Assembly: GCA_003159495.1 (NCBI GenBank)
Contig: PLPI01000054.1
Span: forward strand, 8,409-72,408
DNA: 64,000 bases
Reading direction: 5' to 3'
Source: a candidate division FCPU426 bacterium
GTDB taxonomy: Bacteria; Oederibacteriota; PGYV01; Palsa-1178
Below are positions 8,235 through 46,601 of the stretch, piece by piece. The position numbers and the translations under genes are program-made. How positions within the stretch are numbered: position 1 is the first letter of the stretch; every line of letters begins with the position of its first letter. The notes beneath the pieces were generated by a model. The model made no database searches. It was not told the origin of the DNA and saw only the letters and a program-made list of their open reading frames with translations.

Positions 8235-8960
8235 CTATTTAGAGGCCGAATCACCCGCAGGCGCGGTGGAATCCTCTTCAAACGCAAAACCATAGCTGAT
8301 ATTAACCATCCATGTACCCAGGCTTTTGTACTGCTTATCAAGCGAATATTGCCCCGTAAAAACCGGGTTTATCTTTATGCCCGCGAATGTATAGCTTGCG
8401 CCGATAGTTCCGGCGGCGGCTGTAAATGACGGGGTATAGCCGTTATCCCCGAAATTGTATCCGGCGTTAAGCCCGCCGTTGATGCCGATTCCAAAAAATT
8501 CGAGCTCCTGCGATACGCCGAGTTCGGCGTATCCGCCTTTGCCGAATATGGGGTCGAAATAATATGAAATGTAGGGTTTTGACGGTACATCAACGCTTAA
8601 CGTGCCGAAGAGTTCATTGGATGTGAAAAGCACCGAGGGGTGCGTATAAATCCAGTAACCGGACGACGCGGAGAGAAGCGGTATAAAAGGGACGGAATCG
8701 GTGAAAGAGACCCTGTAATCAGATTCCTCGAAAAGTCCGGTGTCAATTGAGTAGGATCCCCACCAGTCAAGGGTGAATTTATTGAGCCCGACGGATACTC
8801 CGGGCTGGATGACGGGCGTGTCGGATAAAAGCTGGCCCCTCCAGAGATATCTTCCGGCAAAAGCGCCGTAAACGGTTCCGGAAATTCCGGCAAAAACAGG
8901 TGTCAGGGAAGTAAAAATGAGAGAGGCAACAAGGATTAAAAATAAGGAAAGTTTTTTCAT
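8235..8960 (-). CDS. Hypothetical secreted / outer-membrane beta-barrel-like protein
   Basis: Start placed at MKKLSLFLILVASLIF, a typical signal peptide. Alternating hydrophobic/aromatic Gly-rich pattern. No recognisable catalytic motif. Confidence 0.5.
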   Translation of the reverse strand: MKKLSLFLILVASLIFTSLTPVFAGISGTVYGAFAGRYLWRGQLLSDTPVIQPGVSVGLNKFTLDWWGSYSIDTGLFEESDYRVSFTDSVPFIPLLSASSGYWIYTHPSVLFTSNELFGTLSVDVPSKPYISYYFDPIFGKGGYAELGVSQELEFFGIGINGGLNAGYNFGDNGYTPSFTAAAGTIGASYTFAGIKINPVFTGQYSLDKQYKSLGTWMVNISYGFAFEEDSTAPAGDSASK

Positions 8961-17886: not shown

Positions 17887-20103
17887 ATGGAAAAAACAAC
17901 AGTTTTTATTTTTTTTACGCTAATTTTATTCTTTCTTAACTTTAATCTGCTTGCCGCGCCTGAAAAAACCGACATGACGGTCAGCGCGCGCAGCACGGGA
18001 TTATACGGCGTTATTGAGGCGGCCATACCGTCAGATTTCGGGGCCATTAATCCTTATAATTACGATGATATACTTTGCAGGGCATATGTGACATTACCGG
18101 ACAACAGCAGCCGTATTATTGAGGGGTTTTACGGCAAAGATTATGATTATTCACCTGACACATCAGTTTATACCGAAAAAGGCGGGGCTTTCAGGGTCAG
18201 GATTAGCCCGTGGAAATACGGAAGATGGAAATTTTATGTCACAGTGGTGAAGGACGGCAGGGAAGTTTACAGGTCGCCCTTGAAATATTTTGAGGTAAGG
18301 GGAAAAAGGGAATCGGATGGTTTTTTGCGCGTTTCGGACAGCGACCCGCTGTTCCTTTCATTTTCATCCGGCAGGCCGTTTTTCGGCATAGGTATGAACA
18401 CAGCCTGGCCCTCTGATAAAGGGTTGAATGATTTTAAGGACTGGTTTGGAAAGATGCACGCGGCGGGAGCCAATACCGCAAGGGTATGGATGGCGCCGTG
18501 GTCGCTCGGCATTGAATGGGACGGCCAGCCCGGCAATTATGGAAACAGGCAGAAACAGGCTTTCATGCTCGATAAAACCCTGGAACTTGGCCGGGAAAAC
18601 GGAATATACATACTGCTCACGCTTGTTGCGCACGGGGAATTTTCTACAAAAACAAATCCCGAATGGGACAAAAATCCGTATAATATAAAAAACGACGGAA
18701 TTCTTGACAAACCCGAGGACTTTTTTACCAGTACGGCCGCAAAAAAAGCCTTTAAGAACCGCCTGCGCTACATAATTGCACGGTGGGGATATTCCGCGAA
18801 CATACTTGCATGGGAGCTCTTTAACGAAGTCGACCTTACCGATAATTATGATACTGCCGCGGTTTCGGCATGGCATTCGGAAATGGCCGATTTTATAAGG
18901 TCGCGGGATGTTTACAGGCACCTGCTCACAACATCATTTTCAAATCCTGACATGGATCCGGCCATCTGGAATTTGAGCCGGATGGATATAGTCCAGACCC
19001 ATTTATACAACATGAAGGACGAGGCCTCGCAGGTTTATGAGGCATGCAGGGCAAAGACGGAGAATTACGCAAAACCCCATATAATGGGTGAATTTGGCAT
19101 GGATACTGACGGGGATTTTGCGAAGAATAATTCCGACCCGTCCGGTATCGGGCTTCACAACGGACTCTGGGCCGGCGCAATGTCCCTCTCCTGTGCCGCG
19201 CCGCTGTCATGGTACTGGAAGGAATATATCGACCGCGACAACCTTTACGGTGAATTTTCTTCGCTGGAAAAATTCACGGCCGGGATAAACTGGCCGGCCG
19301 AGGGTTTTATAGACCTTCAGAACCGCCGGCTTTTCCTGAAAAAAGTCCCTGACGGCCAAAAAGGCGGGGATGTCACCATCTTTCCCGTTGATTCATGGGC
19401 AAAGGCGCAGAAGGACGAATTTATGGTAAAGGCGGACGGGACCATCACGAATAAAAATAATTTTATAGGCTATCTTTACGGCAGGGAGCATCCGGACATG
19501 AAAACCGTTCCGATAATAAGCTTCAATAACGAACAGCCGGTAAAACTTGTCATAAAGGTCGACAAGGTTTCGCAAGACAATACATTAAGCGTGAGCGTAA
19601 ATAATATAGCGGCTTTTTCCGCCACCATAAGCGCGTCGGCTTATCCATCGAAAAAATATATTGAACAGTATAAGGTCTGGCAGTCGGATATTTCCGGAGA
19701 ATATTCCGTGGATATTCCGGCGGGGGACAATGATGTGGCCGTTGAAAACAAGGGTGATGACTGGATACGGATAACGTCGATAAAACTTGAGGGTTTTTTA
19801 AATCCGGCGGTGGCCCCTGTTTTTGCGGCGGGGATGCAGTCAAAAGACATGGTCATGCTCTGGATAAAAAACAACAATTTCGGCTATTACAACCGCACGC
19901 CGCAGCAGCCGGTTCCGCCGTCCTATCTTGACATAACAGGGCTGAACCCCGGAAGGTACGTCATTGAATATTACGACACTTATTCCGCAAAGGCAATTTC
20001 CAGGGCCGATTATATCGTCGACGACGACTCAATGAGGCTCGAAGTGCCGGAAATCGAAAAGGATATAGCCGTGCGGATTGATAAATATAAAAAGGAGAAA
20101 TAA
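17887..20103 (+). CDS. Secreted glycoside hydrolase, clan GH-A / GH5-like
   Basis: Signal peptide. WELFNE(V) catalytic acid/base motif and HIMGEFG nucleophile motif typical of GH5-like (beta/alpha)8 hydrolases. 738 aa with extra N- and C-terminal beta-rich domains. Confidence 0.65.
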   Translation: MEKTTVFIFFTLILFFLNFNLLAAPEKTDMTVSARSTGLYGVIEAAIPSDFGAINPYNYDDILCRAYVTLPDNSSRIIEGFYGKDYDYSPDTSVYTEKGGAFRVRISPWKYGRWKFYVTVVKDGREVYRSPLKYFEVRGKRESDGFLRVSDSDPLFLSFSSGRPFFGIGMNTAWPSDKGLNDFKDWFGKMHAAGANTARVWMAPWSLGIEWDGQPGNYGNRQKQAFMLDKTLELGRENGIYILLTLVAHGEFSTKTNPEWDKNPYNIKNDGILDKPEDFFTSTAAKKAFKNRLRYIIARWGYSANILAWELFNEVDLTDNYDTAAVSAWHSEMADFIRSRDVYRHLLTTSFSNPDMDPAIWNLSRMDIVQTHLYNMKDEASQVYEACRAKTENYAKPHIMGEFGMDTDGDFAKNNSDPSGIGLHNGLWAGAMSLSCAAPLSWYWKEYIDRDNLYGEFSSLEKFTAGINWPAEGFIDLQNRRLFLKKVPDGQKGGDVTIFPVDSWAKAQKDEFMVKADGTITNKNNFIGYLYGREHPDMKTVPIISFNNEQPVKLVIKVDKVSQDNTLSVSVNNIAAFSATISASAYPSKKYIEQYKVWQSDISGEYSVDIPAGDNDVAVENKGDDWIRITSIKLEGFLNPAVAPVFAAGMQSKDMVMLWIKNNNFGYYNRTPQQPVPPSYLDITGLNPGRYVIEYYDTYSAKAISRADYIVDDDSMRLEVPEIEKDIAVRIDKYKKEK

Positions 20104-20105
20104 AT

Positions 20106-20843
20106 TTGAGGCATGAAATACTGGAACTTTTAAAGGACAAAAAAGCGCTGAAGGAAAAAGGGTTGTTCATAGTTGACACTGAAAAGATACTGGGCGAGGC
20201 CGTCGGGGCCGGGTTTGAAATCGCGCATCTTTTATATACCGAACACGCCCTGCCGGTCGTTGACAAATATATGGACAGGTTAAATGACGGGATTTATGAG
20301 ACGACAAAGGCAAGTTTTGTGGACAGGTTCGCAAATGTGAAAACCCACCAGGGGTTTATAGCCGTTGTGCGCAGCGTTAACAGGGAAATAAAGGGTTTTT
20401 CAGGCATAAACGCCATGGTCCTGCTTGATACGCTGCAGGACCCGGCAAATGTCGGGGCCATTATAAGAAGCGGCGCGGCATTCGGTTTTAATAATTTTCT
20501 GCTCAAAGACAGCGCGAATATTTACGGCGACAAGGCGATACGCGCTTCCGCCGGAGCGGCATTCAGGGTGAATTACAAAAACGTGGAATTGAACGAACTT
20601 GAGGGTTTAAGGACTGATTTTACATTCGTGGCAGCCGACGTTAAAAACGGGATAGACCTGAGGCGCGCAAAGGGTGCCATTAAGGGCAAATATATAATCA
20701 CACTCGGGAGCGAAGGGCAGGGGATATCCGAAGAAGTGAAAAAACTTTGCGATCTGAAGATAAATATTAATTATTCAGGGACCGTGGAATCGCTTAACGT
20801 GGCCGCCGCCGCAGCGATAATTTTTTACGAGATGGCAGTTTAA
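20106..20843 (+). CDS. TrmH/SpoU family RNA 2'-O-methyltransferase
   Basis: SpoU methylase motifs (DPANVGAIIRSGAAFG; C-terminal LNV(A)AAA knot motif). Apparent TTG start. Confidence 0.8.
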   Translation: MRHEILELLKDKKALKEKGLFIVDTEKILGEAVGAGFEIAHLLYTEHALPVVDKYMDRLNDGIYETTKASFVDRFANVKTHQGFIAVVRSVNREIKGFSGINAMVLLDTLQDPANVGAIIRSGAAFGFNNFLLKDSANIYGDKAIRASAGAAFRVNYKNVELNELEGLRTDFTFVAADVKNGIDLRRAKGAIKGKYIITLGSEGQGISEEVKKLCDLKININYSGTVESLNVAAAAAIIFYEMAV

Positions 20844-24054: not shown

Positions 24055-24083
24055 TTGACAGTGGCAGACAGGGGGGGTAAAAT
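24055..24083 (+). promoter_or_regulatory. Sigma70-type promoter of the mraZ/dcw operon
   Basis: TTGACA (24055-24060), 17-nt spacer, TAAAAT (24078-24083). Confidence 0.5.
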
Positions 24084-24224: not shown

Positions 24225-24656
24225 GTGGTAATAAAAACAGGTTTTGTGGGAAATTTCCGCCATAACCTTGATGTGAAAAACAGGGTTTCTCTGCCCGCCA
24301 AGATAAAAAAGTATATCGAAGAAGTGGCGGAGTCTCCCGAATATTCTTCAAGGATAATGCTTGCAAAGGGCGGCGATTGCATAGAGGGATTTATGGTGGC
24401 CGACTGGCAGCGCATGGTAGAACAGGTGCAGCAGAACATGAGCTTTAAACGAAATGCCGGGGACGAGGAACTTGAAGAAATCGCAATGACGGCGGACCAG
24501 GTACAGATCGACAAAAGCGGCAGGATAATGATAAATGCGGAACTTAAAAAATGCGCTGAAATAGGGAAAAACGTGGTGTTCGTGGGGGCCATTGACAGGT
24601 TCAGGATATGGAGTGCGGAGAAGTTCGATGAAAAATACAACGGAGGCGGCAGATGA
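24225..24656 (+). CDS. mraZ: Transcriptional regulator MraZ
   Basis: Duplicated MraZ fold with DxKxR(V/I)SLP motifs. First gene of the dcw cluster. GTG start with RBS GAGGTG. Confidence 0.85.
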   Translation: MVIKTGFVGNFRHNLDVKNRVSLPAKIKKYIEEVAESPEYSSRIMLAKGGDCIEGFMVADWQRMVEQVQQNMSFKRNAGDEELEEIAMTADQVQIDKSGRIMINAELKKCAEIGKNVVFVGAIDRFRIWSAEKFDEKYNGGGR

Positions 24657-24994
24657 GCTTAAAGACGGAATCGAAAAAGGTTGTTGTCCTTATTTTGAGG
24701 GGAAATATCGACATTGAAGACATGCTGGCGCTGAAAGGCATAGTCACATCATTCATAGAAAAGGAAAATTTCTTTTTTATACTGGATTTCTCCGGTGTTG
24801 ACCATATAAATGTATCCGGCATCGAGTATCTGAATGAACGCAAAGAACGCTCGCGCACCATGGCCGGGGATGTGAAAATAATAGGCGCTTCCGATTATGT
24901 AAAAAATCTTTTCCTGTACGCGGGTTACTGGGGGGAATTCGACTTTTTCCCGACAGAGGAAGACGCGATAAAATCATTTGAAAATATAATATGA
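24653..24994 (+). CDS. STAS-domain protein (anti-sigma-factor antagonist-like) inserted between mraZ and rsmH
   Basis: 113 aa. LDFSGVDHINVSGIEYL matches the SpoIIAA/RsbV-type STAS core with a candidate phosphorylatable Ser. Translationally coupled to both neighbours by overlapping stop/start codons. Confidence 0.6.
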   Translation: MSLKTESKKVVVLILRGNIDIEDMLALKGIVTSFIEKENFFFILDFSGVDHINVSGIEYLNERKERSRTMAGDVKIIGASDYVKNLFLYAGYWGEFDFFPTEEDAIKSFENII

Positions 24995-26330: not shown

Positions 26331-28445
26331 TTGGCGAACGACAAACATGACATTAACAGCAGGATAGAGATTATATATTTTGCGTTTACCGCGGTTTTTG
26401 TCGTTTTTGCGTTCCAGCTGGTAATACTGCAGGTGTTCCAGTACGGAAAATTCAGGGACCTGGCGCAGAAACAGCACCTTGAGACCGTGAAGCAGCAGAT
26501 TGGACGCGGTTCGATATTTACGGCCGACGGGAAAAAGCTGGCCATGTCAATCAAGGCATATTCCGTCTGCGCAAACCCGGGCGAGATAAAAAACAGGGCG
26601 GCCGTCGCGGATTATCTTTCAAAAAAGCTCGGCATAAGCAGGGCCGAAATATTTTCAAAGCTTAACACAAAAAAAGCATTTGTTTATATAGACAGAAAGG
26701 TGGATATAGACAAAGCGACATCGATATTTGACAGGGATATACCCGGCGTCTTTCCGCTTGTGGAGGAAAAACGCTACTATCCGCTCCAGGAAAACGGGGC
26801 AAATTTGGTGGGGTTTACCGGAATAGACGGCAACGGCCTTGAGGGGCTTGAAGGGTCCTTCGAAAAGTATTTACGCGGGAAGGTCGGGTTCATGCTGGTC
26901 AAACGCGATGTCAAGGGGCGCCCCATAATGACGGACACCGTGCAGGTAAAAAAAGCGGAAGCCGGCGGAGATCTTTATCTTACGATAGATTCAAACATAC
27001 AGTATTACGCACAGCAGGAACTCAAGACCGCGGTTGAGAAATACAAAGGCAAAACAGGCATGCTGGTGTCGCTGAATCCCAATACGGGCGCAATTTACGC
27101 GATGGCAAACTATCCGACTTTTAACCCGAATGATTTTAACAGGTACCCGGCGGAACTCAGAAAGAACAGGACCGTGACCGACGTTTTTGAACCGGGCTCG
27201 ACTTTCAAAATATTCACAATGGCGGCGATATTAAAGGACAGGCCGGCCGCATACAATGACAGGGTTTTTTGCGGAAACGGAAAAATGGCATTCGGCGACA
27301 GATGGGTGCATGACAATGAAAAACACGGATGGCTAACAGTACCCGATGTTATAAAATTTTCATCCAATATCGGCATGGTGGAGCTTGCCATGAAGCTCAG
27401 CAGGGACAGGCTTTATGATGAATATTCGGCTTTTGGATTCGGCAGGGAAACCGGTTCGGACCTTCCGGGAGAAGTAGGCGGAATTCTCCGCCCGGTTTCC
27501 CAGTGGGACGACTCGACAATGTCATCGATCCCTTACGGCCAGGAAGTGGCGGTAACGGCGGTACAGCTCGCGCGCGCTTATGCGGCTGTCGCAAACGGCG
27601 GATATTTGATAACCCCGTATATAGTTGACAGGGTGGTAAAGAACGGCTCGGTGGTGTACACGCACCCGCAGCCGCAGAAAGTAAAAATACTGGATGACGC
27701 GACCAGGGAGAAACTTATAAAAATGCTTGAAATGGTTGTTGAAAAGGACGGGACCGGAAAGAAAGCCGCTATGGCCGGCTACCAGGTTGCCGGAAAAACA
27801 GGGACGGCGCAAAAGCACAATCCAAACGGAAAGGGCTATGCTACGAATAAATACGTGTGTTCATTTATAGGATTTGTCCCCGCGGAAGATCCGCAAATAC
27901 TGACACTTGTCGTTGTAAACGAACCGGCTGCCATCTGGGCATTCGGAGGCGATGTGGCGGCGCCGGCCTTTAAAAATCTTTCGGGCGACATGATATCATA
28001 CCTTCACGTGGCCCCCGTCACCGGGGCGAAAACTTCGCCGCAGAACGCGGCCGCGGAAACAACGGTGAAAATGACTGATTTTTATATGAAACAGTTTACC
28101 GAGGCAAAGAGGGCGCTTTCGGCTGCATCGATAAAACTTGAAAAAATCGGCTACGGAAAAACAATCATAATGCAGAAACCCGCCGCAAATACTGAAATGA
28201 AAACGGGCGATACGGCGGTTGTATACCTGGCCGATACGGACGCAAAAGAAGGGCTGCGCATTTATATGCCGGACCTTAAAGGGTTGACCATAAGGAACGC
28301 CATAGAAATATTAAAGGTTTACGGGCTGAATGTAAAATGCGTAGGCAGCGGCACTGCCGTATCCCAGCAGCCAAACCCCGGTGTTGCGGTAAAAAAGGGA
28401 TCCGAATGCACGGTCAGCTTTGAACTTCAGGGGCGCCCGTTATGA
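26331..28445 (+). CDS. ftsI: Peptidoglycan D,D-transpeptidase FtsI (class B PBP) with two C-terminal PASTA domains
   Basis: STFK active-site serine motif (GSTFKIFT), SSN, KTGT. The last ~130 aa form two PASTA-like repeats. Confidence 0.85.
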   Translation: MANDKHDINSRIEIIYFAFTAVFVVFAFQLVILQVFQYGKFRDLAQKQHLETVKQQIGRGSIFTADGKKLAMSIKAYSVCANPGEIKNRAAVADYLSKKLGISRAEIFSKLNTKKAFVYIDRKVDIDKATSIFDRDIPGVFPLVEEKRYYPLQENGANLVGFTGIDGNGLEGLEGSFEKYLRGKVGFMLVKRDVKGRPIMTDTVQVKKAEAGGDLYLTIDSNIQYYAQQELKTAVEKYKGKTGMLVSLNPNTGAIYAMANYPTFNPNDFNRYPAELRKNRTVTDVFEPGSTFKIFTMAAILKDRPAAYNDRVFCGNGKMAFGDRWVHDNEKHGWLTVPDVIKFSSNIGMVELAMKLSRDRLYDEYSAFGFGRETGSDLPGEVGGILRPVSQWDDSTMSSIPYGQEVAVTAVQLARAYAAVANGGYLITPYIVDRVVKNGSVVYTHPQPQKVKILDDATREKLIKMLEMVVEKDGTGKKAAMAGYQVAGKTGTAQKHNPNGKGYATNKYVCSFIGFVPAEDPQILTLVVVNEPAAIWAFGGDVAAPAFKNLSGDMISYLHVAPVTGAKTSPQNAAAETTVKMTDFYMKQFTEAKRALSAASIKLEKIGYGKTIIMQKPAANTEMKTGDTAVVYLADTDAKEGLRIYMPDLKGLTIRNAIEILKVYGLNVKCVGSGTAVSQQPNPGVAVKKGSECTVSFELQGRPL

Positions 28446-31384
28446 AAAAAATGAACTTGAAAACCCTGCTTGGAAACTCCGGCTCATATACCGTTTTGCA
28501 GGGGGCCGCGGATATGGATATAACGGATATCGCCGAATCGGCTTCCACGGCGAAAAATGGATCCGTGTTTTTCTGCGTCCGGGGGATAAAAAAAGACGGA
28601 CATGATTTCATTCCGGAAGCGGTAAAAAACGGGGTATCCGCCATAATAGTTGAAAATGACGTAAGGGTAAAAGAAGGCACGGCGGTCATCAGGGTAAAAA
28701 ACGCCAGGGAAGCCATGTTTTACGCGGCTGACAAATTTTACGCCGGTGAAAAGAAAAAAGTCAGTGTGATTGCGATAACAGGGACAAAGGGAAAGACCAC
28801 GGTATCGTATCTTATAGATGCGCTATTAAAGCAACAGACGGGCCGGGAAAACGCCGTGGTAGGAACCATAGGATACAGGATAGGAAAAAAACATTATCCC
28901 GCCGGCAATACCACGCCTTCAAATATAAAGGTTCATAAGCTTATAGCCATGGCCGCGCGCGCCGGGATAAAATATTTTATCATTGAGGCGTCCTCGGAGG
29001 CGCTTGACCAGGGCAGGCTGAGGAATATTGATGTGGATTCCGTTGTGGTTACGAACGTCACCAGGGATCATTTTGATTACCATAAAAATTTCGCCAATTA
29101 TCTGAAGGCAAAAATGATCGTGATATCGAACATGAAAAAGGGCGGAAGGTTTGTCGTCAATATCGACTCGAAAGGCAGCAGGGAAATGGTTGCCGGGGCG
29201 CGGGCGAAAACCGCGGACATTATTACATGCTCGACTAAAAAAAAGGCCGGCATAAGGCTCCTGAAATATTCGCTGGATATCAAAGGCACGGATTTTACGC
29301 TGGATGTAAAGGGAAAGAAGATGGAAATATCGACGGAACTTGTGGGCATGCATAATATTTACAACATTATGTCGGCTATAGGCGCGGTTAAGGGGATAGT
29401 ATCCGGGAATAATATGATAAAAGCACTGGCTGATTTCAAAACTGTCGACGGCAGGCTTGACAGGGCATACAGCGGGGAATTTGACGTTATTGTGGATTAT
29501 GCGCATACGCCTGATTCGATGGAAAAAACACTGACTGCGCTCAACGCCCTGAAAAAGGGGCGGGTTATAACGGTCTTCGGAGCCGGCGGCAACAAGGACC
29601 GTGGAAAAAGGCCGTTGATGGGGGCCATCGCGGAAAAGCTCAGTGACGAGGTCATCGTGACATCCGATAACCCGCGCTACGAGGAACCCGGAAAAATAAT
29701 AGCTGACATTATGAATGGCGTCAGGCGGAAAAAAGATATCATGATAGTTCCCGACAGGAGGCTGGCCATTGCCGCCGCCGTAAAGAAAGCAGTTAAGGAC
29801 GATATTGTGCTCATAGCCGGAAAGGGCCATGAAACCTACCAGGAAATAAAGGGAAAAAGGCACCCGTTCGAGGACAAGAAGGTTGCACTTGAAATGATAA
29901 AAAAACACAGGGGCGTAAAAAAAATATATTTATCCGGGTTATTAAAAAACATGAATTACAGCTTGCTTTCGGGGGGCACGGAAATTGAAATAAAAGGCGT
30001 CGAAGATAATTCATGGAGGGTTAAAAAGGGATTTCTTTTTATAGCTGTAAAGGGATTTTCCCATGACGGCCATGATTATATCGCCGAAGCCGTAAAACGC
30101 GGAGCGGCCGCCGTGCTGGTTGAAAAAAAAGTCAGGGTGCGCGGCGCGGCTGTGATAAAGGTTAAAAATACCAGGGAAGCGCTGTTTGAGATTACGGACA
30201 GGTTTTTCAGCGGCACGAAGGGAAAAATAAAAATAATAGGCGTTACCGGGACAAACGGGAAAACCACGGCGGTTTACATGACGGACGGCATACTAAGGGC
30301 TGAATACGGCGGGAAGAACGCCGTTGCCGGAACCATAGAATACAAGGTCGGAAAAAACTATTATCCGTCCATTAACACAACGCCGTCGAACGTGATCCTT
30401 CACAGGCTCATAGAAGAGGCCGTGGGGAAAAAGTTGAAATATTTTATAATGGAAGTTTCCTCGCACGCGCTGGACCAGGACAGGATAAAGAATATCGAAC
30501 TTGATACCGCCGTTGTTACCAATGTAACGCGGGATCATTTTGATTACCATAAAAATTTCAGGAATTACCTCGCGGCAAAACTGAAAATAGTTGATGCGAT
30601 GCGGGAGGGCGGAAGGCTTGTCATAAATCTTGACGATGCCAGCTCCGGGAAATTCATCGCCGCCGCAAAAAAACGCCGGCTGAAAATACTGACATATTCC
30701 CTGAATAAAAAAAGGGCTGATATAAAGCCGGTCTCTTACAGCCTCGATATTAACGGCGTTACCGCGGAACTAGACATAAAGGGCAGCAGGGAAACGATAA
30801 GATGCAACCTTCCGGGCATTCATAATCTTTACAATATGATGTCAGCCGTTGGAGCGTGCCTCAACGAAGCCAGGATAAAATCGATAAAAAGAGGCATTGA
30901 AAACCTGAAAAGCGTGAACGGCAGGACCGAGATGGTTTATGACGGAAATTTTAAGGTGATGGTGGATTACGCGCACACGCCTGACGCGCTTGAACAGGTC
31001 CTTTCAACGCTTGCAAAGGTGAAAAAGGGAAGGCTCATAACCGTATTCGGGGCGCCGGGCAACAGGGACAGGGGCAAGAGGCCCCTTATGGGAAAAGTGG
31101 CCGAAAAACTCAGCGATACAGTGATAATAACTTCGGATAACACTGAAAATGAAAAACCAATGGACATAATAAACGAGGTTCTCGGAGGAGTCAGAAATCC
31201 CGGAAAGGCCGTAGTGGAGCCGGACAGAAGAAAAGCGATAAGGCTCGCAATAGGCGGGGCAAAACCCGGGGATGTGGTGCTCATCGCGGGCAAGGGCCAT
31301 GAAAAGTACCAGGACATTATGGGCAAAAAGTCAGCGTTCGAGGATAAAAACGAGGCGTTAAAAGCGCTGAAAGCGGCAAAATGA
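28442..31384 (+). CDS. murE: Tandem-fused double Mur ligase: two complete MurE-like modules in one 980-aa ORF
   Basis: Module 1 (aa 1-~500): P-loop GTKGKTT, DYAHTPD, GNKDRGKR, DNPR (meso-DAP-type). Module 2 (aa ~504-980, begins at an internal Met at nt 29951): P-loop GTNGKTT, DYAHTPD, GNRDRGKR, but DNTE in place of DNPR. No stop codon between the modules. Confidence 0.85.
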   Translation: MKKMNLKTLLGNSGSYTVLQGAADMDITDIAESASTAKNGSVFFCVRGIKKDGHDFIPEAVKNGVSAIIVENDVRVKEGTAVIRVKNAREAMFYAADKFYAGEKKKVSVIAITGTKGKTTVSYLIDALLKQQTGRENAVVGTIGYRIGKKHYPAGNTTPSNIKVHKLIAMAARAGIKYFIIEASSEALDQGRLRNIDVDSVVVTNVTRDHFDYHKNFANYLKAKMIVISNMKKGGRFVVNIDSKGSREMVAGARAKTADIITCSTKKKAGIRLLKYSLDIKGTDFTLDVKGKKMEISTELVGMHNIYNIMSAIGAVKGIVSGNNMIKALADFKTVDGRLDRAYSGEFDVIVDYAHTPDSMEKTLTALNALKKGRVITVFGAGGNKDRGKRPLMGAIAEKLSDEVIVTSDNPRYEEPGKIIADIMNGVRRKKDIMIVPDRRLAIAAAVKKAVKDDIVLIAGKGHETYQEIKGKRHPFEDKKVALEMIKKHRGVKKIYLSGLLKNMNYSLLSGGTEIEIKGVEDNSWRVKKGFLFIAVKGFSHDGHDYIAEAVKRGAAAVLVEKKVRVRGAAVIKVKNTREALFEITDRFFSGTKGKIKIIGVTGTNGKTTAVYMTDGILRAEYGGKNAVAGTIEYKVGKNYYPSINTTPSNVILHRLIEEAVGKKLKYFIMEVSSHALDQDRIKNIELDTAVVTNVTRDHFDYHKNFRNYLAAKLKIVDAMREGGRLVINLDDASSGKFIAAAKKRRLKILTYSLNKKRADIKPVSYSLDINGVTAELDIKGSRETIRCNLPGIHNLYNMMSAVGACLNEARIKSIKRGIENLKSVNGRTEMVYDGNFKVMVDYAHTPDALEQVLSTLAKVKKGRLITVFGAPGNRDRGKRPLMGKVAEKLSDTVIITSDNTENEKPMDIINEVLGGVRNPGKAVVEPDRRKAIRLAIGGAKPGDVVLIAGKGHEKYQDIMGKKSAFEDKNEALKALKAAK

Positions 31385-32730
31385 AAATTAATTTAAGCGA
31401 AATTTACAGGGTGTTTAACACAGGTTTTGAGGGCAGGGACGTGAGCGTTCCCGACATATGCACGGATACACGCACCCTTAAAAAAGGGGATGTATTTTTC
31501 GCCCTTATCGGAGACACCGACGGCCACAGGTATGCCGCCCAGGCTTTTTACAACGGAGCTTCGGCGATCATTGTTGAAAAATATGCCGAAGGCGTTGAAA
31601 CGGCAAAACAGATAAAGGTAAAGGACACGACGCGGGCGCTGCTGACGCTGGCCGCATATTATTACAAAAAATTCGGGAAATTAAAATGCGCGGCCGTCAC
31701 GGGAAGCAACGGCAAGACGACAACCAAGGAACTGCTTGCGGCGATGCTGTCCGAAAAGTACGAAACGCTTAAAAGCGAAAAAAGCTTTAATAACGCGATA
31801 GGGCTCCCGCGCACTGTTTTTAAGCTCAAGGATAAGTTCGACGCGGCTGTTTTTGAAATCGGGATGAACCATGCGGGCGAGATTAAAAATCTGGTTTCAG
31901 CCATCAGCCCGCGGGTGTCAATAATTACCAATGTTGGAAGGGCCCATATCGCTTTTTTCAGGGACGGCCTGAAGGGCATAGCAAAGGCCAAGGCCGAAAT
32001 TATGACGGGGATGGAGCCGGGCGGGGTTGTCGTGATAAACGCCGACGATGACTTTGCGGGTTTTATGGAACGGGAAGCCGCAAAAAGGAAGTTAAATACC
32101 GTGACTTTCGGGATAAAAAACAAGGCCGATGTAAGGGCCGTGGATATTGTAACCGCGGCTGACGGGACGTACTTTAAGGTTAACTGCCTTAAAGAAAGGT
32201 TTTTTACCGGGCTAAAAGGCGGGTATAACATTTACAACGCTGCAGCGGCGGTCGCTGCGGCCATGGCCTTCAAAGTGCCGGGAAAGTCCATAAAAAATGC
32301 GCTGGCCGGATTTAAGATGGAAGGGTTCATGAGGTTTGAAAAGGTCAGGCTGAAAAATTCGGTGCTGCTGATAAATGACTGTTATAACGCAAACCCGGAT
32401 TCTTTTTCCGCCTCCATAGAGGCGTTGAAAAAAGAGGGGTATAAATCTGTGGTGGCGGTCATGGGCGACATGCTTGAACTGGGTAAAAGCTCGGCCGCAA
32501 TGCACATTGAGATAGGAAAAAAGTTCAGGGAAATTCCGCTGAAAAACTTTTTTGTTTACGGCAAATACTCCGGACAGGTAAAAAAAGGATACGGGGAAAA
32601 AGCGCGCGTTTACACCGACAGGGAAAAACTGTCACGCGTCCTTAAGCAGGCGGTGGAGAAGGGCGATACTGTTTTTGTAAAAGGCTCCAGGGGAAACAAA
32701 CTTGAGGAAATTGTGGAAGTATTAAAATAA
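31381..32730 (+). CDS. murF: UDP-N-acetylmuramoyl-tripeptide--D-alanyl-D-alanine ligase
   Basis: MurF-type N-terminus, P-loop GSNGKTT, position in the dcw cluster. Confidence 0.85.
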   Translation: MKINLSEIYRVFNTGFEGRDVSVPDICTDTRTLKKGDVFFALIGDTDGHRYAAQAFYNGASAIIVEKYAEGVETAKQIKVKDTTRALLTLAAYYYKKFGKLKCAAVTGSNGKTTTKELLAAMLSEKYETLKSEKSFNNAIGLPRTVFKLKDKFDAAVFEIGMNHAGEIKNLVSAISPRVSIITNVGRAHIAFFRDGLKGIAKAKAEIMTGMEPGGVVVINADDDFAGFMEREAAKRKLNTVTFGIKNKADVRAVDIVTAADGTYFKVNCLKERFFTGLKGGYNIYNAAAAVAAAMAFKVPGKSIKNALAGFKMEGFMRFEKVRLKNSVLLINDCYNANPDSFSASIEALKKEGYKSVVAVMGDMLELGKSSAAMHIEIGKKFREIPLKNFFVYGKYSGQVKKGYGEKARVYTDREKLSRVLKQAVEKGDTVFVKGSRGNKLEEIVEVLK

Positions 32731-42610: not shown

Positions 42611-43735
42611 ATGAGTGAACTCGACGGAAAGTTAAAGTTTGAACTGGCGGAAGCCGGGGATTTTACAGGTACGGGGATAAAGATAAAGGTGATAGGCGTC
42701 GGCGGGTGCGGTTGTAACATCATAAACGACATGACGGAATTCGGCCTTAAAGACGCGGAAATCCTCGCCGTCAACACCGATTTACAGTCGTTAAACAGGG
42801 TCACCGCGGCTGAAAAAATACAGATAGGCTCCAGGCTTACAAAAGGCGGCGGAGCGGGTTCCAATCCGGAAAACGGCGAACGCGCGGCCGAGGAAGACAG
42901 GGACCTGCTGGAAAATAAATTGCGCGGCACCGATATGCTGTTTATCACCTGCGGCGTGGGCGGAGGCACGGGTTCGGGGGCCGCGCCGGTGATCGCGGAT
43001 ATCGCAAGGGGGCTGGATATCCTCACGATTGGGGTCGTCGTTACGCCGACTACAATGGAGCTTCAGACAGAGAAGAAAAGAAAGATTGTCGAACATGCCA
43101 TGTCCAGGCTGAAGGAAAAACTAAATTCGATAATAACAATATCAAACCAGAAGATACTTGATATTTTTGAGGGGGACATGACGCTGCCCCAGGCTTATAA
43201 GGAGGCGAACCGCGCGCTGATAAACATAGTGGACGGCATAGTCTCGATGATAGCCAAACCCGGCATGCAGAATATTGATTTTGAGGATGTCAAGGCGACC
43301 TTAAAACAGAAAGGCGATACTTTTTTGGGCATAGGCCGCGCCAGCGGGACGGACAGGGCAAAAAAGGCCTTTGACAGGGCGCTGAAGAATCCTTTTATAG
43401 GCGATGTTGATGTGCTTGGCGCCAAAGAAATGCTCATCAATTTTGTGGGCAACATAACCGTAGGAGAACTGAAGGAAATAGAAAATTTTAAGAAGTTGAC
43501 CGGGCCGGATGTATCGCTGAAATACGGGTTTGTCTGCGACGAAAGTTTTGAGGATGAAGTGGAGGTTGTAATACTGATGTCCGGCATAAACGCAATGTCC
43601 GCGGAAAAATGCGGCGATGCCGCGCCGGAAAAAGTGGAGAAAACCGCCGAGTTGATTAATTTGAACGTAAAGCAGATGATGGAAAATAATTATGAGAATG
43701 TGGAAATACCGACTTTTCAGCGGTATATAAATTAA
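42611..43735 (+). CDS. ftsZ: Cell division protein FtsZ, with Cys substitutions in the T1 glycine loop
   Basis: GVGGCGCNIIN (T1 loop) and GGGTGSGAAPVIA tubulin signature. Confidence 0.9.
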   Translation: MSELDGKLKFELAEAGDFTGTGIKIKVIGVGGCGCNIINDMTEFGLKDAEILAVNTDLQSLNRVTAAEKIQIGSRLTKGGGAGSNPENGERAAEEDRDLLENKLRGTDMLFITCGVGGGTGSGAAPVIADIARGLDILTIGVVVTPTTMELQTEKKRKIVEHAMSRLKEKLNSIITISNQKILDIFEGDMTLPQAYKEANRALINIVDGIVSMIAKPGMQNIDFEDVKATLKQKGDTFLGIGRASGTDRAKKAFDRALKNPFIGDVDVLGAKEMLINFVGNITVGELKEIENFKKLTGPDVSLKYGFVCDESFEDEVEVVILMSGINAMSAEKCGDAAPEKVEKTAELINLNVKQMMENNYENVEIPTFQRYIN

Positions 43736-43744
43736 GGTGGAAAA

Positions 43745-44941
43745 ATGAAAAAAGTTATTGCGGCGGTTGTGCTGGCAATTTTTGCGGCATTCCCGGCCCT
43801 TGCGGACGTTCCGGCGGCGCTTGACGGGCTCGCCGTCTCCGGAATAACAGCGGAATATGACTGGACCCTTAACAGGGTGGTTTTGAGCAACGGGGAGGAG
43901 AGGGTGGTTGTCATAATTAACTATCCTTATCTGATAAGCGGGGATAAGATGATAAGGCTTGATGCGCCTCCGGTTATAGAAGGCTCCGGGGTTATGATTT
44001 CCGCTTATACCGCCGCCAGGATAAAAGAGGAACTGCCGGAGCGGCCGCAGGCCGTCACCCCGGAAACAATAACAATAAAAGCGGACGCTGCCCCGGAAAA
44101 AACAGCTGTAACGGCCAGGGGAACAACCGGAGAAGTAAAAGCGCAATATTACGCCGCAACGCCCGTGGCGTTAAAAAGGGCGTATACGGCGAAATATAAA
44201 GCAAGGGTAAAAAAATCCAATCCCGCCTCAGTCACGCAGCCCGTAATACCGGCGGCAGCAACGCCCGTAATTGAGGCCAAAGGCGGTAAACCGTTAAGGC
44301 GCAGGCTGGTGGTTATTGATCCGGGACACGGGGGAAAGGATTCCGGCGCGCTGGGACACCACGGGCTCAAGGAAAAAGATGTCGTGCTTGCCGTCGCCCT
44401 TGACGTGAAAAAAGACATGAACGATTATCCGGCCGATGTGCTTATAACAAGGGATACAGATGATTTTATAACGTTAAAAGGCAGGACCGTGTTCGCGAAC
44501 GCGAGAAAGGCCGATATTTTTGTATCCATTCACTGCAATTCATCTCCTGATTCGCAGGTATGCGGGACAAGGACTTATATATATAACAGGGTGGCTTCGT
44601 CAAAAGAAGCCGCAGAGGCGGCCAGATATGAAAACGGGCAGGAGGGAAGTTTTGAGTTCCTGATGAATGACCTGAGAAAAAGCGCGTATGAATACCTTTC
44701 AATCGAACTGGCCGGGAATATCCAGCACGCCATGAGCGATGAACTGAAATTTAAATGGATGCCGGCGGCAAGGGCCCCTTTTTATGTTCTTGCAAATACG
44801 GACATGCCGGCCGTGCTTGTGGAAACAGCCTTTATTTCAAACAATATGGAAGAACAGGAAATGGAAACACCCGGTTTCAGGGACAAAATTGCAGACGGCA
44901 TCGCAAAAGGAATAGAGGAATACTTTGCAAAGATACAGTGA
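43745..44941 (+). CDS. N-acetylmuramoyl-L-alanine amidase (AmiC-like) with an N-terminal targeting domain
   Basis: Signal peptide, Amidase_3 motifs (VIDPGHGGKDSGA ... IHCNSS). Confidence 0.8.
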   Translation: MKKVIAAVVLAIFAAFPALADVPAALDGLAVSGITAEYDWTLNRVVLSNGEERVVVIINYPYLISGDKMIRLDAPPVIEGSGVMISAYTAARIKEELPERPQAVTPETITIKADAAPEKTAVTARGTTGEVKAQYYAATPVALKRAYTAKYKARVKKSNPASVTQPVIPAAATPVIEAKGGKPLRRRLVVIDPGHGGKDSGALGHHGLKEKDVVLAVALDVKKDMNDYPADVLITRDTDDFITLKGRTVFANARKADIFVSIHCNSSPDSQVCGTRTYIYNRVASSKEAAEAARYENGQEGSFEFLMNDLRKSAYEYLSIELAGNIQHAMSDELKFKWMPAARAPFYVLANTDMPAVLVETAFISNNMEEQEMETPGFRDKIADGIAKGIEEYFAKIQ

Positions 44942-44947
44942 TACACA

Positions 44948-45808
44948 TTGAAGAACACGCTGCCCGCCGGATTTAAAATTATTAAAAAAATGGGGCTCCC
45001 GCTTATATGTTGCGAAGCCATTTCAAAAATCCCGGGGTTTACACAGGTCTTTACCACCCGCGCGGGAGGCGTAAGTAAAAAGCCCTTTGATTCGCTTAAT
45101 GTCGGCGTTCATACCGGGGATAATTTTAAAAAAGCCGTTATAAACATATCAAGGCTTGAAAAAAGCCTGGCAATAAAATACGCGGGAGCCGCAAGACAGG
45201 TGCATGGCAGTGATGTTATAATATTGAAGAACCGCGCGTTAAAATTCACAGGCGCTGAAATCAGGAAAATGACGGATGTTGAAGCCGATGCCCTTATTAC
45301 AGACATACCCGGGCTTGCTGTCGGAGTAAGGCTTGCCGACTGCGCCGGGACGGTCATAATAGATCCGGTAAAAAAAACCGTGGCAGCGGTGCATTCCGGA
45401 TGGCGCGGCATTGCGAATAAGATACCGGCAAAAACCGTAAAAATGATGAAAAAACATTTTGGCTCCAAACCCGCTGATTTAACAGCCTCTGTTTCGCCGG
45501 CGATAGGGCCGTGTTGTTACGAAATCGGCGCCGATGTCCTGAAATTGAAAAAACAGAAAGTGTTTCGAGGGATTTTTACGAAAAAAAACGGCCGTAATTA
45601 TATGAACCTGTGGAAAGGCGTAAAAAATCTCCTTGTAAATGAGGGGATAAAACCCAATAATATTCATATTTGTTCCATGTGCACATATGACAACCCGGAA
45701 CTCTTTTATTCGCACAGGCGCGATAAGGGAAAAACCGGACGCATGATGGCTCTTGGATTTTTCAAAAAAAAAGCAGGCATAAAAAAGGCGGAGGAACACC
45801 ATGGCTGA
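44948..45808 (+). CDS. pgeF: Peptidoglycan editing factor PgeF (YfiH/DUF152 laccase-domain protein)
   Basis: FTTRAGGVS, ADCAG and HSGWRG motifs. Start may be the internal Met at 44990. Confidence 0.75.
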   Translation: MKNTLPAGFKIIKKMGLPLICCEAISKIPGFTQVFTTRAGGVSKKPFDSLNVGVHTGDNFKKAVINISRLEKSLAIKYAGAARQVHGSDVIILKNRALKFTGAEIRKMTDVEADALITDIPGLAVGVRLADCAGTVIIDPVKKTVAAVHSGWRGIANKIPAKTVKMMKKHFGSKPADLTASVSPAIGPCCYEIGADVLKLKKQKVFRGIFTKKNGRNYMNLWKGVKNLLVNEGIKPNNIHICSMCTYDNPELFYSHRRDKGKTGRMMALGFFKKKAGIKKAEEHHG

Positions 45809-46601
45809 TGATATGCAAAGCGGCTCTGACAGGGATGCAATTGACAGAAAACTGGGCGACGAGTGGAGCGAATGGGCGGGAGACCTTTCAAAATATGAAA
45901 AACAGATAAATGAAGGAAAGGCGCTTTTCCTGACATATTATTTTGCGGCGCTTTTTGCCGTAACGGCCGTTTCGATGGCCGTTTATTATATGATATCGCC
46001 AAGGCTCTACGGTTTCAGCCCGGCTCTTGACGCTGTAGTGATGTGGGCCGTGGCGGGTGTGTTTACAGCCGTATTTGTATGGTCGCTGATGCTTTTTATA
46101 ACCGTGGTTACCGGCAGAAATATCATGCTCGCGTTTAAAAGCGAAGGGCTGCATGTTGAATGGCTCTATCCGGCGGTATTTAAAATAGCGGCTGTGTTCG
46201 GAATATCAAGGGACAGGGTCGGGAACTCGCTTGTAAAGGTAAATAACGCGCTGATATTCGCCACAAAAAAAAGGTTTTCCGCGTCAAACCTGCTCGTACT
46301 GCTCCCCAGGTGCCTTGATCCTGAAATGAGGCTGAAAGTCGCGGAAGTAACAAAAAAATATTCGTGCCGTGTATTTACCGCGACGGGCGGGTCGTCGGCA
46401 AGGCAGATGGTGAAAAAAATCAGGCCGGACGCGATAATAGGCGTGGCGTGCGAACGGGACCTGGTGGCTGGAATGTCAGATTCCCCCAAAGTAATACCCA
46501 TAATAGCGATAACAAACATAAGGCCGCACGGGCCGTGCAAGGATACGGTGATAGATGTTGATGAACTTGAAAATGCGATCAGGTTCCTTGTAAAAAATTG
46601 A
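45801..46601 (+). CDS. Hypothetical membrane protein (possibly DUF116-like) at the end of the dcw cluster
   Basis: Three TM helices, C-terminal soluble domain with a Cys pair. Overlaps the pgeF stop. Confidence 0.4.
   Translation: MADDMQSGSDRDAIDRKLGDEWSEWAGDLSKYEKQINEGKALFLTYYFAALFAVTAVSMAVYYMISPRLYGFSPALDAVVMWAVAGVFTAVFVWSLMLFITVVTGRNIMLAFKSEGLHVEWLYPAVFKIAAVFGISRDRVGNSLVKVNNALIFATKKRFSASNLLVLLPRCLDPEMRLKVAEVTKKYSCRVFTATGGSSARQMVKKIRPDAIIGVACERDLVAGMSDSPKVIPIIAITNIRPHGPCKDTVIDVDELENAIRFLVKN

Follow-up and report, generated by a model that had tools for sequence, protein, structure and literature searches.

A conserved MurE-MurE fusion, with a remodelled amino-acid pocket in its second module, in the division and cell-wall cluster of a Goldbacteria-lineage bacterium

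The ligase MurE sets the residue through which peptidoglycan is cross-linked, a marker of wall chemotype that is read by innate immune receptors and matters critically for viability. In a 64,000-nucleotide stretch of DNA from a candidate division FCPU426 bacterium (contig PLPI01000054.1 of assembly GCA_003159495.1, forward-strand positions 8,409 to 72,408, hereafter the window), the gene between ftsI and murF encodes two MurE modules in a single 980-residue protein, which raises the questions of whether such a gene is real and what its second module would contribute to the cell wall. The gene lies in a full division and cell-wall (dcw) cluster that includes murD, murC and murF, and both of its boundaries are ATGA overlaps, its ATG with the ftsI stop and its stop with the murF ATG (Table 1). 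All annotation sources checked label the product as plain MurE. The double MurE is a genuine open reading frame conserved in its lineage, and its existence and conservation are well established; with moderate confidence, based on its residues, it is read here as a bifunctional enzyme in which module 1 would be a meso-diaminopimelate (meso-DAP) ligase and module 2 an active ligase for an amino acid other than DAP.

Each of the three Mur ligase domains (Pfam Mur_ligase, PF01225; Mur_ligase_M, PF08245; and Mur_ligase_C, PF02875) was found twice in the protein, and each half, scanned alone, matched the NCBIfam equivalog model for meso-DAP-adding MurE (NF001126) from end to end, with scores above the cut-off of 373 bits (Table 1). 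Model TIGR01085 gave 475.5 bits for module 1 and 472.5 bits for module 2 (cut-off 257.3), and the two modules are collinear, with 50% identity across 488 aligned positions (E = 4e-175). Both halves score as MurE, and the second half is thus a Mur ligase module. A preliminary description of this DNA, which had recognised two complete, collinear MurE modules in one 980-residue frame, had quoted the P-loops, DYAHTPD, DNPR/DNTE and other motifs at their places and had counted a fifth Mur ligase module beside murC, murD and murF, is borne out on all of these points. Its placement of the module 2 start at the methionine at nt 29951 is not, as homology to module 1 begins at residue 490/491 (nt 29909-29912), 13 residues ahead of that methionine (Met504), with VKKIYLSGLL aligned to MKKMNLKTLL of module 1. 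An internal translation start for module 2 was rejected, given that residue 491 is encoded by GTA (valine), which is no start codon, and that Met485 and Met504 are unconserved in orthologues; no promoter-like or terminator-like signal was found at the module junction. In an AlphaFold2 model (predicted local distance difference test score, pLDDT, of 85.6) the secondary-structure elements have the same order in both modules, and a coil linker of six residues (490-495) follows the terminal helix of module 1 (478-489). The predicted template modelling score (pTM) of the full fused protein is 0.55, and the packing of the two modules is therefore without a confident prediction.

Two homopolymers of eight adenines flank the junction (Table 1), so that a concern over frameshifts was fair, and database entries of 496 and 477 residues (P0274, P0281 and P0282, in the 90% cluster of the window protein) resemble a free module 2, as would be expected if an assembly or frameshift artefact had joined two neighbouring murE genes. 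However, the exact 980-residue protein is encoded, in the same unbroken frame, on at least 24 independent contigs in assemblies held at ENA, JGI and NCBI, and the five of these contigs that were compared by nucleotide, among them PLOP01000054.1 of GCA_003142155.1, have no differences from the window. Among 5.8 billion protein clusters searched, eight were full-length fusions (979-991 residues, 45-99% identity, 98-100% coverage) and two more matched as fragments. The junctions of the orthologues have sequences unlike that of the window, yet are in frame every time, and fusion extends to orthologues of 45-71% identity whose junction DNA is unrelated. The beginning of module 2, marked by neither a start codon nor a conserved methionine, likewise argues against two separate genes. 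The entries resembling a free-standing module 2 were rejected as such, since they are truncations at contig edges, lying on contigs of about 2 kb and starting at the first ATG past the edge; entries of this kind could mislead automated surveys into counting separate genes. The probability of an artefact, a concern already raised in the preliminary description, is close to nil.

The two modules differ in the site that receives the amino acid. In MurE enzymes that add meso-DAP, the Asn and Arg of a DNPR tetrad hydrogen-bond the free carboxylate of meso-DAP, and its distal amino group is bound by the Asp of the tetrad with Glu468 (PMC3829189); the Arg, Arg416, binds the free end of meso-DAP in all enzymes of this type, and is Ala or Asn in Lys enzymes (PMC6736417). 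The Lys-type MurE of Staphylococcus aureus has DNPA and an acidic pocket favouring a cationic side chain (PMC3829189). Residue equivalences were confirmed by alignment with the E. coli 1E8C and T. maritima 4BUB chains, and conservation was assessed against 252 other MurE modules, in which 111 columns are at least 80% conserved. Across module 2 of the seven proteins of the close clade, the only uniform departures at positions conserved at 98% or more are G386P, P415T/A and R416E, all of which lie in the pair of C-terminal-domain loops that make up the amino-acid site. Position 386 is Gly in 99% of other MurEs and Pro (GAPGNRD) in module 2 of all seven close-clade orthologues, and the tetrad of these seven modules is DNTE in six and DNAE in one. 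Among the 283 MurE modules nearest to module 2, DNPR was present in 265 and DN(T/A)E occurred only in module 2 of this clade; DN(T/A)E was found in none of 276 other MurE modules and in none of 80 diverse genomes, where the tetrad was DNPR in 79 and DNSR in one. The latter sample comprised distant MurE or MurE plus MurF loci, at 41% identity or less, from a peptide-pattern scan of genome contigs, and also supplied the outgroups of the species proxy described below. In P0008 and P0009, which are distant fused orthologues, the module 2 tetrad is still DNPR, and Gln or Ser takes the place of Glu468, which is 100% conserved in outgroup MurEs. Each of the fused proteins has a changed amino-acid pocket in module 2, by one of two routes. 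The difference first noticed between DNPR in module 1 and DNTE in module 2 stands, but the divergence is not limited to the tetrad, as it includes G386P, and it is derived in one subclade.

These changes bear on the possibility that both modules are ordinary meso-DAP ligases, with the fusion doubling MurE dosage or stabilising the enzyme, which presumes that meso-DAP can still be held by Asn414, Asp413, Arg389 and Glu468 in spite of R416E. In the window, Glu468 is present in both modules, and the position of Arg389, a residue reported from the E. coli structure to have a role in DAP binding, is Arg in module 2 and Lys in module 1. Redundancy would also fit the passing of the DAP-ligase equivalog cut-off by both halves, the presence of DNPR in both modules of the oldest fused orthologues and the extension of specificity determinants beyond the tetrad. 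However, R416E is a charge reversal at the carboxylate-binding site, at a position where Arg is 99% conserved in the 252 other MurEs, and redundant copies would be unlikely to persist with equal purifying selection and a fixed, clade-specific change of three pocket residues. Two redundant DAP ligases are consequently rated as rather improbable.

Module 1 of the fused proteins always keeps DNPR and GKGHE. Its P-loop substitution N117K is found in all seven close-clade proteins and also in the single MurEs P0121 (494 residues) and P0122 (486 residues), which were the best non-fused matches to module 2 in an exhaustive HMMER search of 1.84 billion representatives; since these single-gene relatives share it, N117K is compatible with function. 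Of the seven close-clade proteins, five have H186E/Q and five have R389K, the window protein being among them in both cases, at positions that are 92% (His186) and 99% (Arg389) conserved in other MurEs. As P0121 and P0122 keep both the His and the Arg, module 1 may also have shifted in function after the fusion.

Outside the amino-acid loops, the residues expected of a working ligase are retained in both modules. Across eight orthologues, down to about 44% identity, the Gly, Lys and Thr of the P-loop are invariant in both modules, as are the equivalents of Glu182, His210 and Lys224 (with RDH.DYH conserved around the His), NTTPSN, GKGH, and the Asp, Ala, His and Thr of DYAHTPD. Judged by these residues, both modules look CATALYTICALLY competent, and each is predicted to be active. 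Identity between orthologues is equal for the two modules (e.g. 72% and 71% for the window and P0002). The ratio of nonsynonymous to synonymous substitution rates (dN/dS, by the Nei-Gojobori method) was 0.076 for module 1 and 0.079 for module 2 between the window and L094, 0.068 and 0.077 between the window and L095, and 0.082 and 0.101 between the window and L096, values that are approximate because dS is near saturation for most pairs; dN is nearly the same in the two modules. The ratio is far below 1 in both modules for every pair with estimable dS except that of the window and L088, which is near-identical (7 nucleotide differences) and uninformative. Both modules are under strong and equal purifying selection, at a dN/dS of about 0.08 each.

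A pseudo-enzyme could in principle evolve from such a module, binding nucleotide or UDP-N-acetylmuramyl (UDP-MurNAc) peptide without ligation and acting as a scaffold, a chaperone or an allosteric or regulatory domain for module 1. The pocket lesion in module 2 of each fused orthologue, which differs between them (R416E/P415T/G386P or E468Q/S), could then be a loss of binding, and non-enzymatic proteins derived from MurE do exist, PAP11 chains being among the PDB matches. In addition, one relative has a premature stop in module 2: L094 3001-5946 (P0006, 81% identical) has a lone in-frame TAG at codon 654 of an otherwise intact frame of 981 codons, where NVILHRL is replaced by NIV-stop-HQL. Constraint is not relaxed in this copy, and because its module 2 still has a dN/dS of 0.079, the TAG would reflect a sequencing error, recoding or a nonsense mutation that arose very recently. 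The ATP-, Mg- and acceptor-site residues of module 2 are all invariant over the orthologue range given above, its dN/dS equals that of module 1, its new tetrad is fixed and conserved rather than drifting, and it has fewer deviations from the MurE consensus than module 1 (14.3 and 17.0 per module, respectively). These observations make a pseudo-enzyme unlikely, in agreement with the earlier opinion that a dead module 2 is less likely.

A further possibility is that module 2 acts on a different acceptor, extending the tripeptide made by module 1 at the D-Glu alpha-carboxyl or the DAP distal carboxyl to give a branched or otherwise non-canonical stem. Fusion would ease the hand-over of the module 1 product, and Mur-ligase folds have been recruited for such chemistry, as in MurT, whose target is the alpha-carboxyl of D-Glu (PMC6736417). 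With a new acceptor, however, one would expect more of the protein to be remodelled, whereas the changes in module 2 are confined to the amino-acid loops, and module 2 scores 32 bits against a cut-off of 800 with the MurT model NF045635; this alternative is viewed as quite improbable.

The favoured explanation remains that of two ligases with different amino-acid substrates. In an ancestor within the Goldbacteria lineage, murE would have been duplicated locally in the dcw operon and the intervening stop then lost, giving modules that would fold as independent three-domain Mur ligases on a joint of about six residues and would both run the normal acyl-phosphate mechanism. Module 1, with DNPR and Glu468 retained, would be the canonical meso-DAP ligase. 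In module 2, the Arg that holds the distal carboxylate of meso-DAP has become Glu, with the two flanking loop positions changed (G386P, P415T/A), and R416E together with these changes would make the pocket more acidic. Because the charge reversal at position 416 is fixed and conserved while residues conserved in MurE are otherwise retained, module 2 is suggested to add a non-DAP amino acid; it would reject meso-DAP and prefer a cationic side chain without a distal carboxylate, for which L-Lys or L-Orn would be the most plausible and simplest choices. Two kinds of UDP-MurNAc-tripeptide would then be produced in the cell, at a fixed enzyme stoichiometry, and its single MurF would have to accept both, as does E. 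coli MurF, which takes DAP- and Lys-tripeptides equally well (PMC6736417).

Several points weigh against this explanation. Lys-type enzymes have Ala or Asn at the fourth position of the tetrad, and the Glu of module 2 is not a state described for them. With the L-Lys-adding MurE model (NF010628, PRK14022), module 2 scores 283.6 bits, far below the cut-off of 536 and level with module 1 (283.3 bits). In view of this non-Lys-type residue and low score, the choice of Lys or Orn follows from electrostatic reasoning alone. The tetrad is also not the sole determinant of specificity, as the A409R substitution in S. aureus MurE did not confer DAP activity (PMC3829189). The substrate of module 2 may vary across the lineage, given that the distant orthologues change Glu468 and keep DNPR, and describing module 1 as canonical is not fully safe, given H186E/Q and R389K at nearly invariant positions. 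A mixed wall would need tolerant transpeptidases, since Lys-type precursors are lytic in E. coli, as seen when S. aureus MurE placed L-Lys in that organism in place of DAP (PMC6736417). The in-frame TAG of L094, if real, would mean that module 2 can be lost.

A bolder variant, considered somewhat unlikely, is that the DN(T/A)E clade builds a peptidoglycan that is as yet undescribed. This could be a constitutively mixed wall with two position-3 precursors made by one polypeptide, namely meso-DAP and a second residue picked by a Glu-containing pocket of a kind never reported for MurE, or a branched stem, with module 2 modifying the peptide that module 1 has made. If so, the fusion would be a natural two-step or two-product assembly line, and R416E and G386P would constitute a new specificity code for MurE re-engineering. 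Should module 2 add another amino acid, an uncultivated phylum would have a non-canonical or dual-chemotype peptidoglycan, and the protein would serve as a natural experiment in the evolution of MurE specificity; an inactive or redundant module 2 would still make a clean case of a duplicated essential enzyme retained as a fusion.

The nearest named relatives of the window FtsZ are metagenome-assembled genomes (MAGs) of Candidatus Goldiibacteriota/Goldbacteria, at 51-57% identity, with other phyla at 42% or less. The closest named FtsZ, P0299 (68% identical to the product of window 42611..43735), is labelled 'Spirochaetia bacterium', and its MAG is probably mislabelled or misbinned, all other named relatives being Goldbacteria/Goldiibacteriota. 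A Goldbacteria/Goldiibacteriota lineage contains fused orthologues of about 980 residues, which share 45-71% identity and have the same synteny, and some relatives have a single murE; the source of P0009 is an NCBI MAG named Candidatus Goldiibacteriota. The cluster order mraZ-STAS-rsmH-ftsL-ftsI-murE/murE-murF-mraY-murD-ftsW-murG-murC-murB-ddl-ftsQ-ftsA is found at the loci of P0002, P0003, P0007 and P0009, which come from JGI, Logan and NCBI assemblies; the P0003 contig stops at murF. P0121 belongs to a cluster of the same distinctive make-up, with the STAS gene present and murF directly after P0121, and P0122 is also followed by murF.

In neighbour-joining trees, P0121 and P0122 fall with every module of the fused proteins in a single clade that has a bootstrap of 100 and is separate from other MurEs; the duplication is therefore lineage-specific, which upholds the tandem duplication proposed at the outset. 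Within this clade, module 1 of the close clade (bootstrap 77) is distinct from module 2 of the close clade (bootstrap 100), and the deeper order has bootstrap values of about 30. In a species proxy built from 5 proteins (1,637 columns), the DN(T/A)E genomes group with bootstrap 98, while L084, with a single murE, and L081, with a fused gene of the DNPR/GKGHS kind, are at the base in an order without support. The histories compatible with these trees are one origin of the fusion with later loss, one origin without loss, or two origins. In the related lineage with P0122/P0267 (L085 542-2002), which is presumably the only MurE of its cluster, the single MurE has GKGAE for GKGHE, with the His replaced.

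Each module has the three domains, P-loop, residues of the Glu/His/carbamyl-Lys site, DYAHTPD and GKGHE of canonical MurE, in the same slot between ftsI and murF and with DNPR in module 1, from which the protein differs by two modules per polypeptide, by DNTE and G386P in module 2 and by N117K, H186E and R389K in module 1. MurE-MurF fusions (NF008896, PRK11929; PDB 8F5D) likewise have two Mur modules head to tail, in the dcw cluster and at similar length. Here, however, the second module is a MurE (985 bits, versus 96 bits to the window MurF; P0001, 99% identical), a separate murF follows, and the whole protein scores 929.3 bits against the NF008896 cut-off of 1023. Among 151 long two-module hits, 141 were MurE-MurF, eight belonged to the present family, one was P0033, which has a weak second-half match and motifs suggestive of a MurE-FolC type, and one was P0173.

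P0173 (MCL2439184.1; L086 / L087 10001-12931) is a 976-residue MurE-MurE fusion from an unrelated Gram-negative lineage, scoring 452 and 439 bits with NF001124. This fusion arose independently, and its gene is found away from any dcw cluster, in divergent orientation to alr and with lpxK and kdtA nearby. DYAHTPD and the GxGGDRDxxKRP loop have been lost from both of its modules, and its module 1 has GTMYE for GKGHE. Like the L-Lys-adding MurEs used as comparators (S. aureus 4C12, with DNPA, and T. maritima 4BUB, with DDPR, which adds L- and D-Lys), module 2 has lost or changed the DAP-carboxylate-binding Arg and would have a more acidic pocket (PMC3829189), but it comes from a DAP-type ancestor, outside the Firmicute Lys-ligase family, and its fourth tetrad residue is Glu. 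The archaeal Mur-alpha/Mur-beta ligases of pseudomurein biosynthesis are comparable in being tandem Mur ligase paralogues born of a duplication, which some genomes encode as a fusion (PMC11915815); unlike the double MurE, they belong to a MurD-related family, serve another polymer and occur in archaeal hosts. Plant plastid PAP11 is a MurE descendant that also has an altered DNPR region (DNPK or DNQG in the aligned PDB chains), but its role in the plastid RNA polymerase is that of a structural subunit, whereas the double MurE retains its catalytic residues and dcw context. The 'second murE' of Streptomycetaceae was rejected as a precedent, being of the DUF1727/MurT type. The literature searched mentions only MurE-MurF and archaeal Mur-alpha/beta fusions, with no description of a MurE-MurE fusion, nor of a stably kept, selected double MurE with one charge-reversed pocket.

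Table 1. Features of the fused gene and its surroundings, in nucleotide positions of the window.
Feature	Position	Strand	Basis or remark
Fused murE-murE gene	28442..31384	+	980 codons + stop; open reading frame call, Pfam, NCBIfam
ftsI (class B penicillin-binding protein, PASTA domain)	26331..28445	+	directly upstream of fused murE
murF	31381..32730	+	directly downstream of fused murE
Module 1 (residues 1-489), complete MurE, DAP-type pocket (DNPR + GKGHE)	28442..29908	+	NF001126, 492.5 bits
Module 1 P-loop GTKGKTT	28781..28801	+	N117K relative to GTNGKTT consensus
Module 1 EASSEAL	28985..29005	+	catalytic Glu182 equivalent kept; His186 equivalent is Glu
Module 1 RDHFDYH...YLKAK	29063..29116	+	putative equivalents of Mg-binding His210 and carbamylated Lys224; invariant in orthologues
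Module 1 DYAHTPD	29495..29515	+	
Module 1 GAGGNKDRGKRP loop	29579..29614	+	Arg389 equivalent is Lys
Module 1 DNPR tetrad	29666..29677	+	meso-DAP carboxylate-binding motif; role from PMC3829189
Module 1 GKGHE	29819..29833	+	Glu468 equivalent present
Junction, about 6 coil residues 490-495 (RGVKKI)	29909..29926	+	no stop, extra domain or start codon
A8 runs flanking junction	29897-29904 and 29919-29926		
Module 2 (residues 490-980), complete MurE, remodelled amino-acid pocket	29909..31381	+	NF001126, 509.3 bits
Module 2 P-loop GTNGKTT	30248..30268	+	consensus
Module 2 EVSSHAL, RDHFDYH, YLAAK	30452..30583	+	catalytic Glu/His/Lys equivalents; invariant in orthologues
Module 2 DYAHTPD	30965..30985	+	
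Module 2 GAPGNRDRGKRP loop	31049..31084	+	Gly386 equivalent is Pro; Arg389 equivalent kept
Module 2 DNTE tetrad	31136..31147	+	in place of DNPR (P415T, R416E)
Module 2 GKGHE	31289..31303	+	Glu468 equivalent present
Large gene upstream of mraZ (738 residues)	17887..20103		
Putative SpoU-family methylase gene (245 residues)	20106..20843		
Sigma-70-like site	24055..24083	+	TTGACA, 17-nt spacer, TAAAAT; 11/12 matches
STAS-domain gene (113 residues)	24653..24994	+	Pfam STAS, E = 1.3e-11
Amidase_3, Cu-oxidase_4 and DUF116 genes	43745..46601	+	directly after ftsZ

Several neighbouring genes in the window are also shared with related clusters. The STAS-domain gene lies between mraZ and rsmH, overlapping both, and is kept in every Goldbacteria-lineage dcw cluster examined (L081 6261-6602, L082 6197-6544, L084 850-1191 and L095 5861-6202). 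STAS is not known as a usual member of the dcw cluster, and the gene might regulate cell-wall or division genes in this lineage specifically. The best sigma-70-like site of the region is about 140 nt upstream of mraZ (24225), a position that would fit one shared promoter for the dcw operon. Further upstream of mraZ, a large gene (about 710-740 residues) followed by a SpoU-family methylase gene (about 245 residues) is shared in order with loci at 45-55% identity (L081 2501-5392 and L082 1414-4302); the large gene has DUF5060 in L081 and L082, plus a Cellulase domain in L081, and its 738-residue counterpart in the window had no Pfam match. Directly after ftsZ, the cell-wall theme is extended by genes for Amidase_3 (AmiC-type), Cu-oxidase_4 (YfiH/PgeF-type) and DUF116 proteins.

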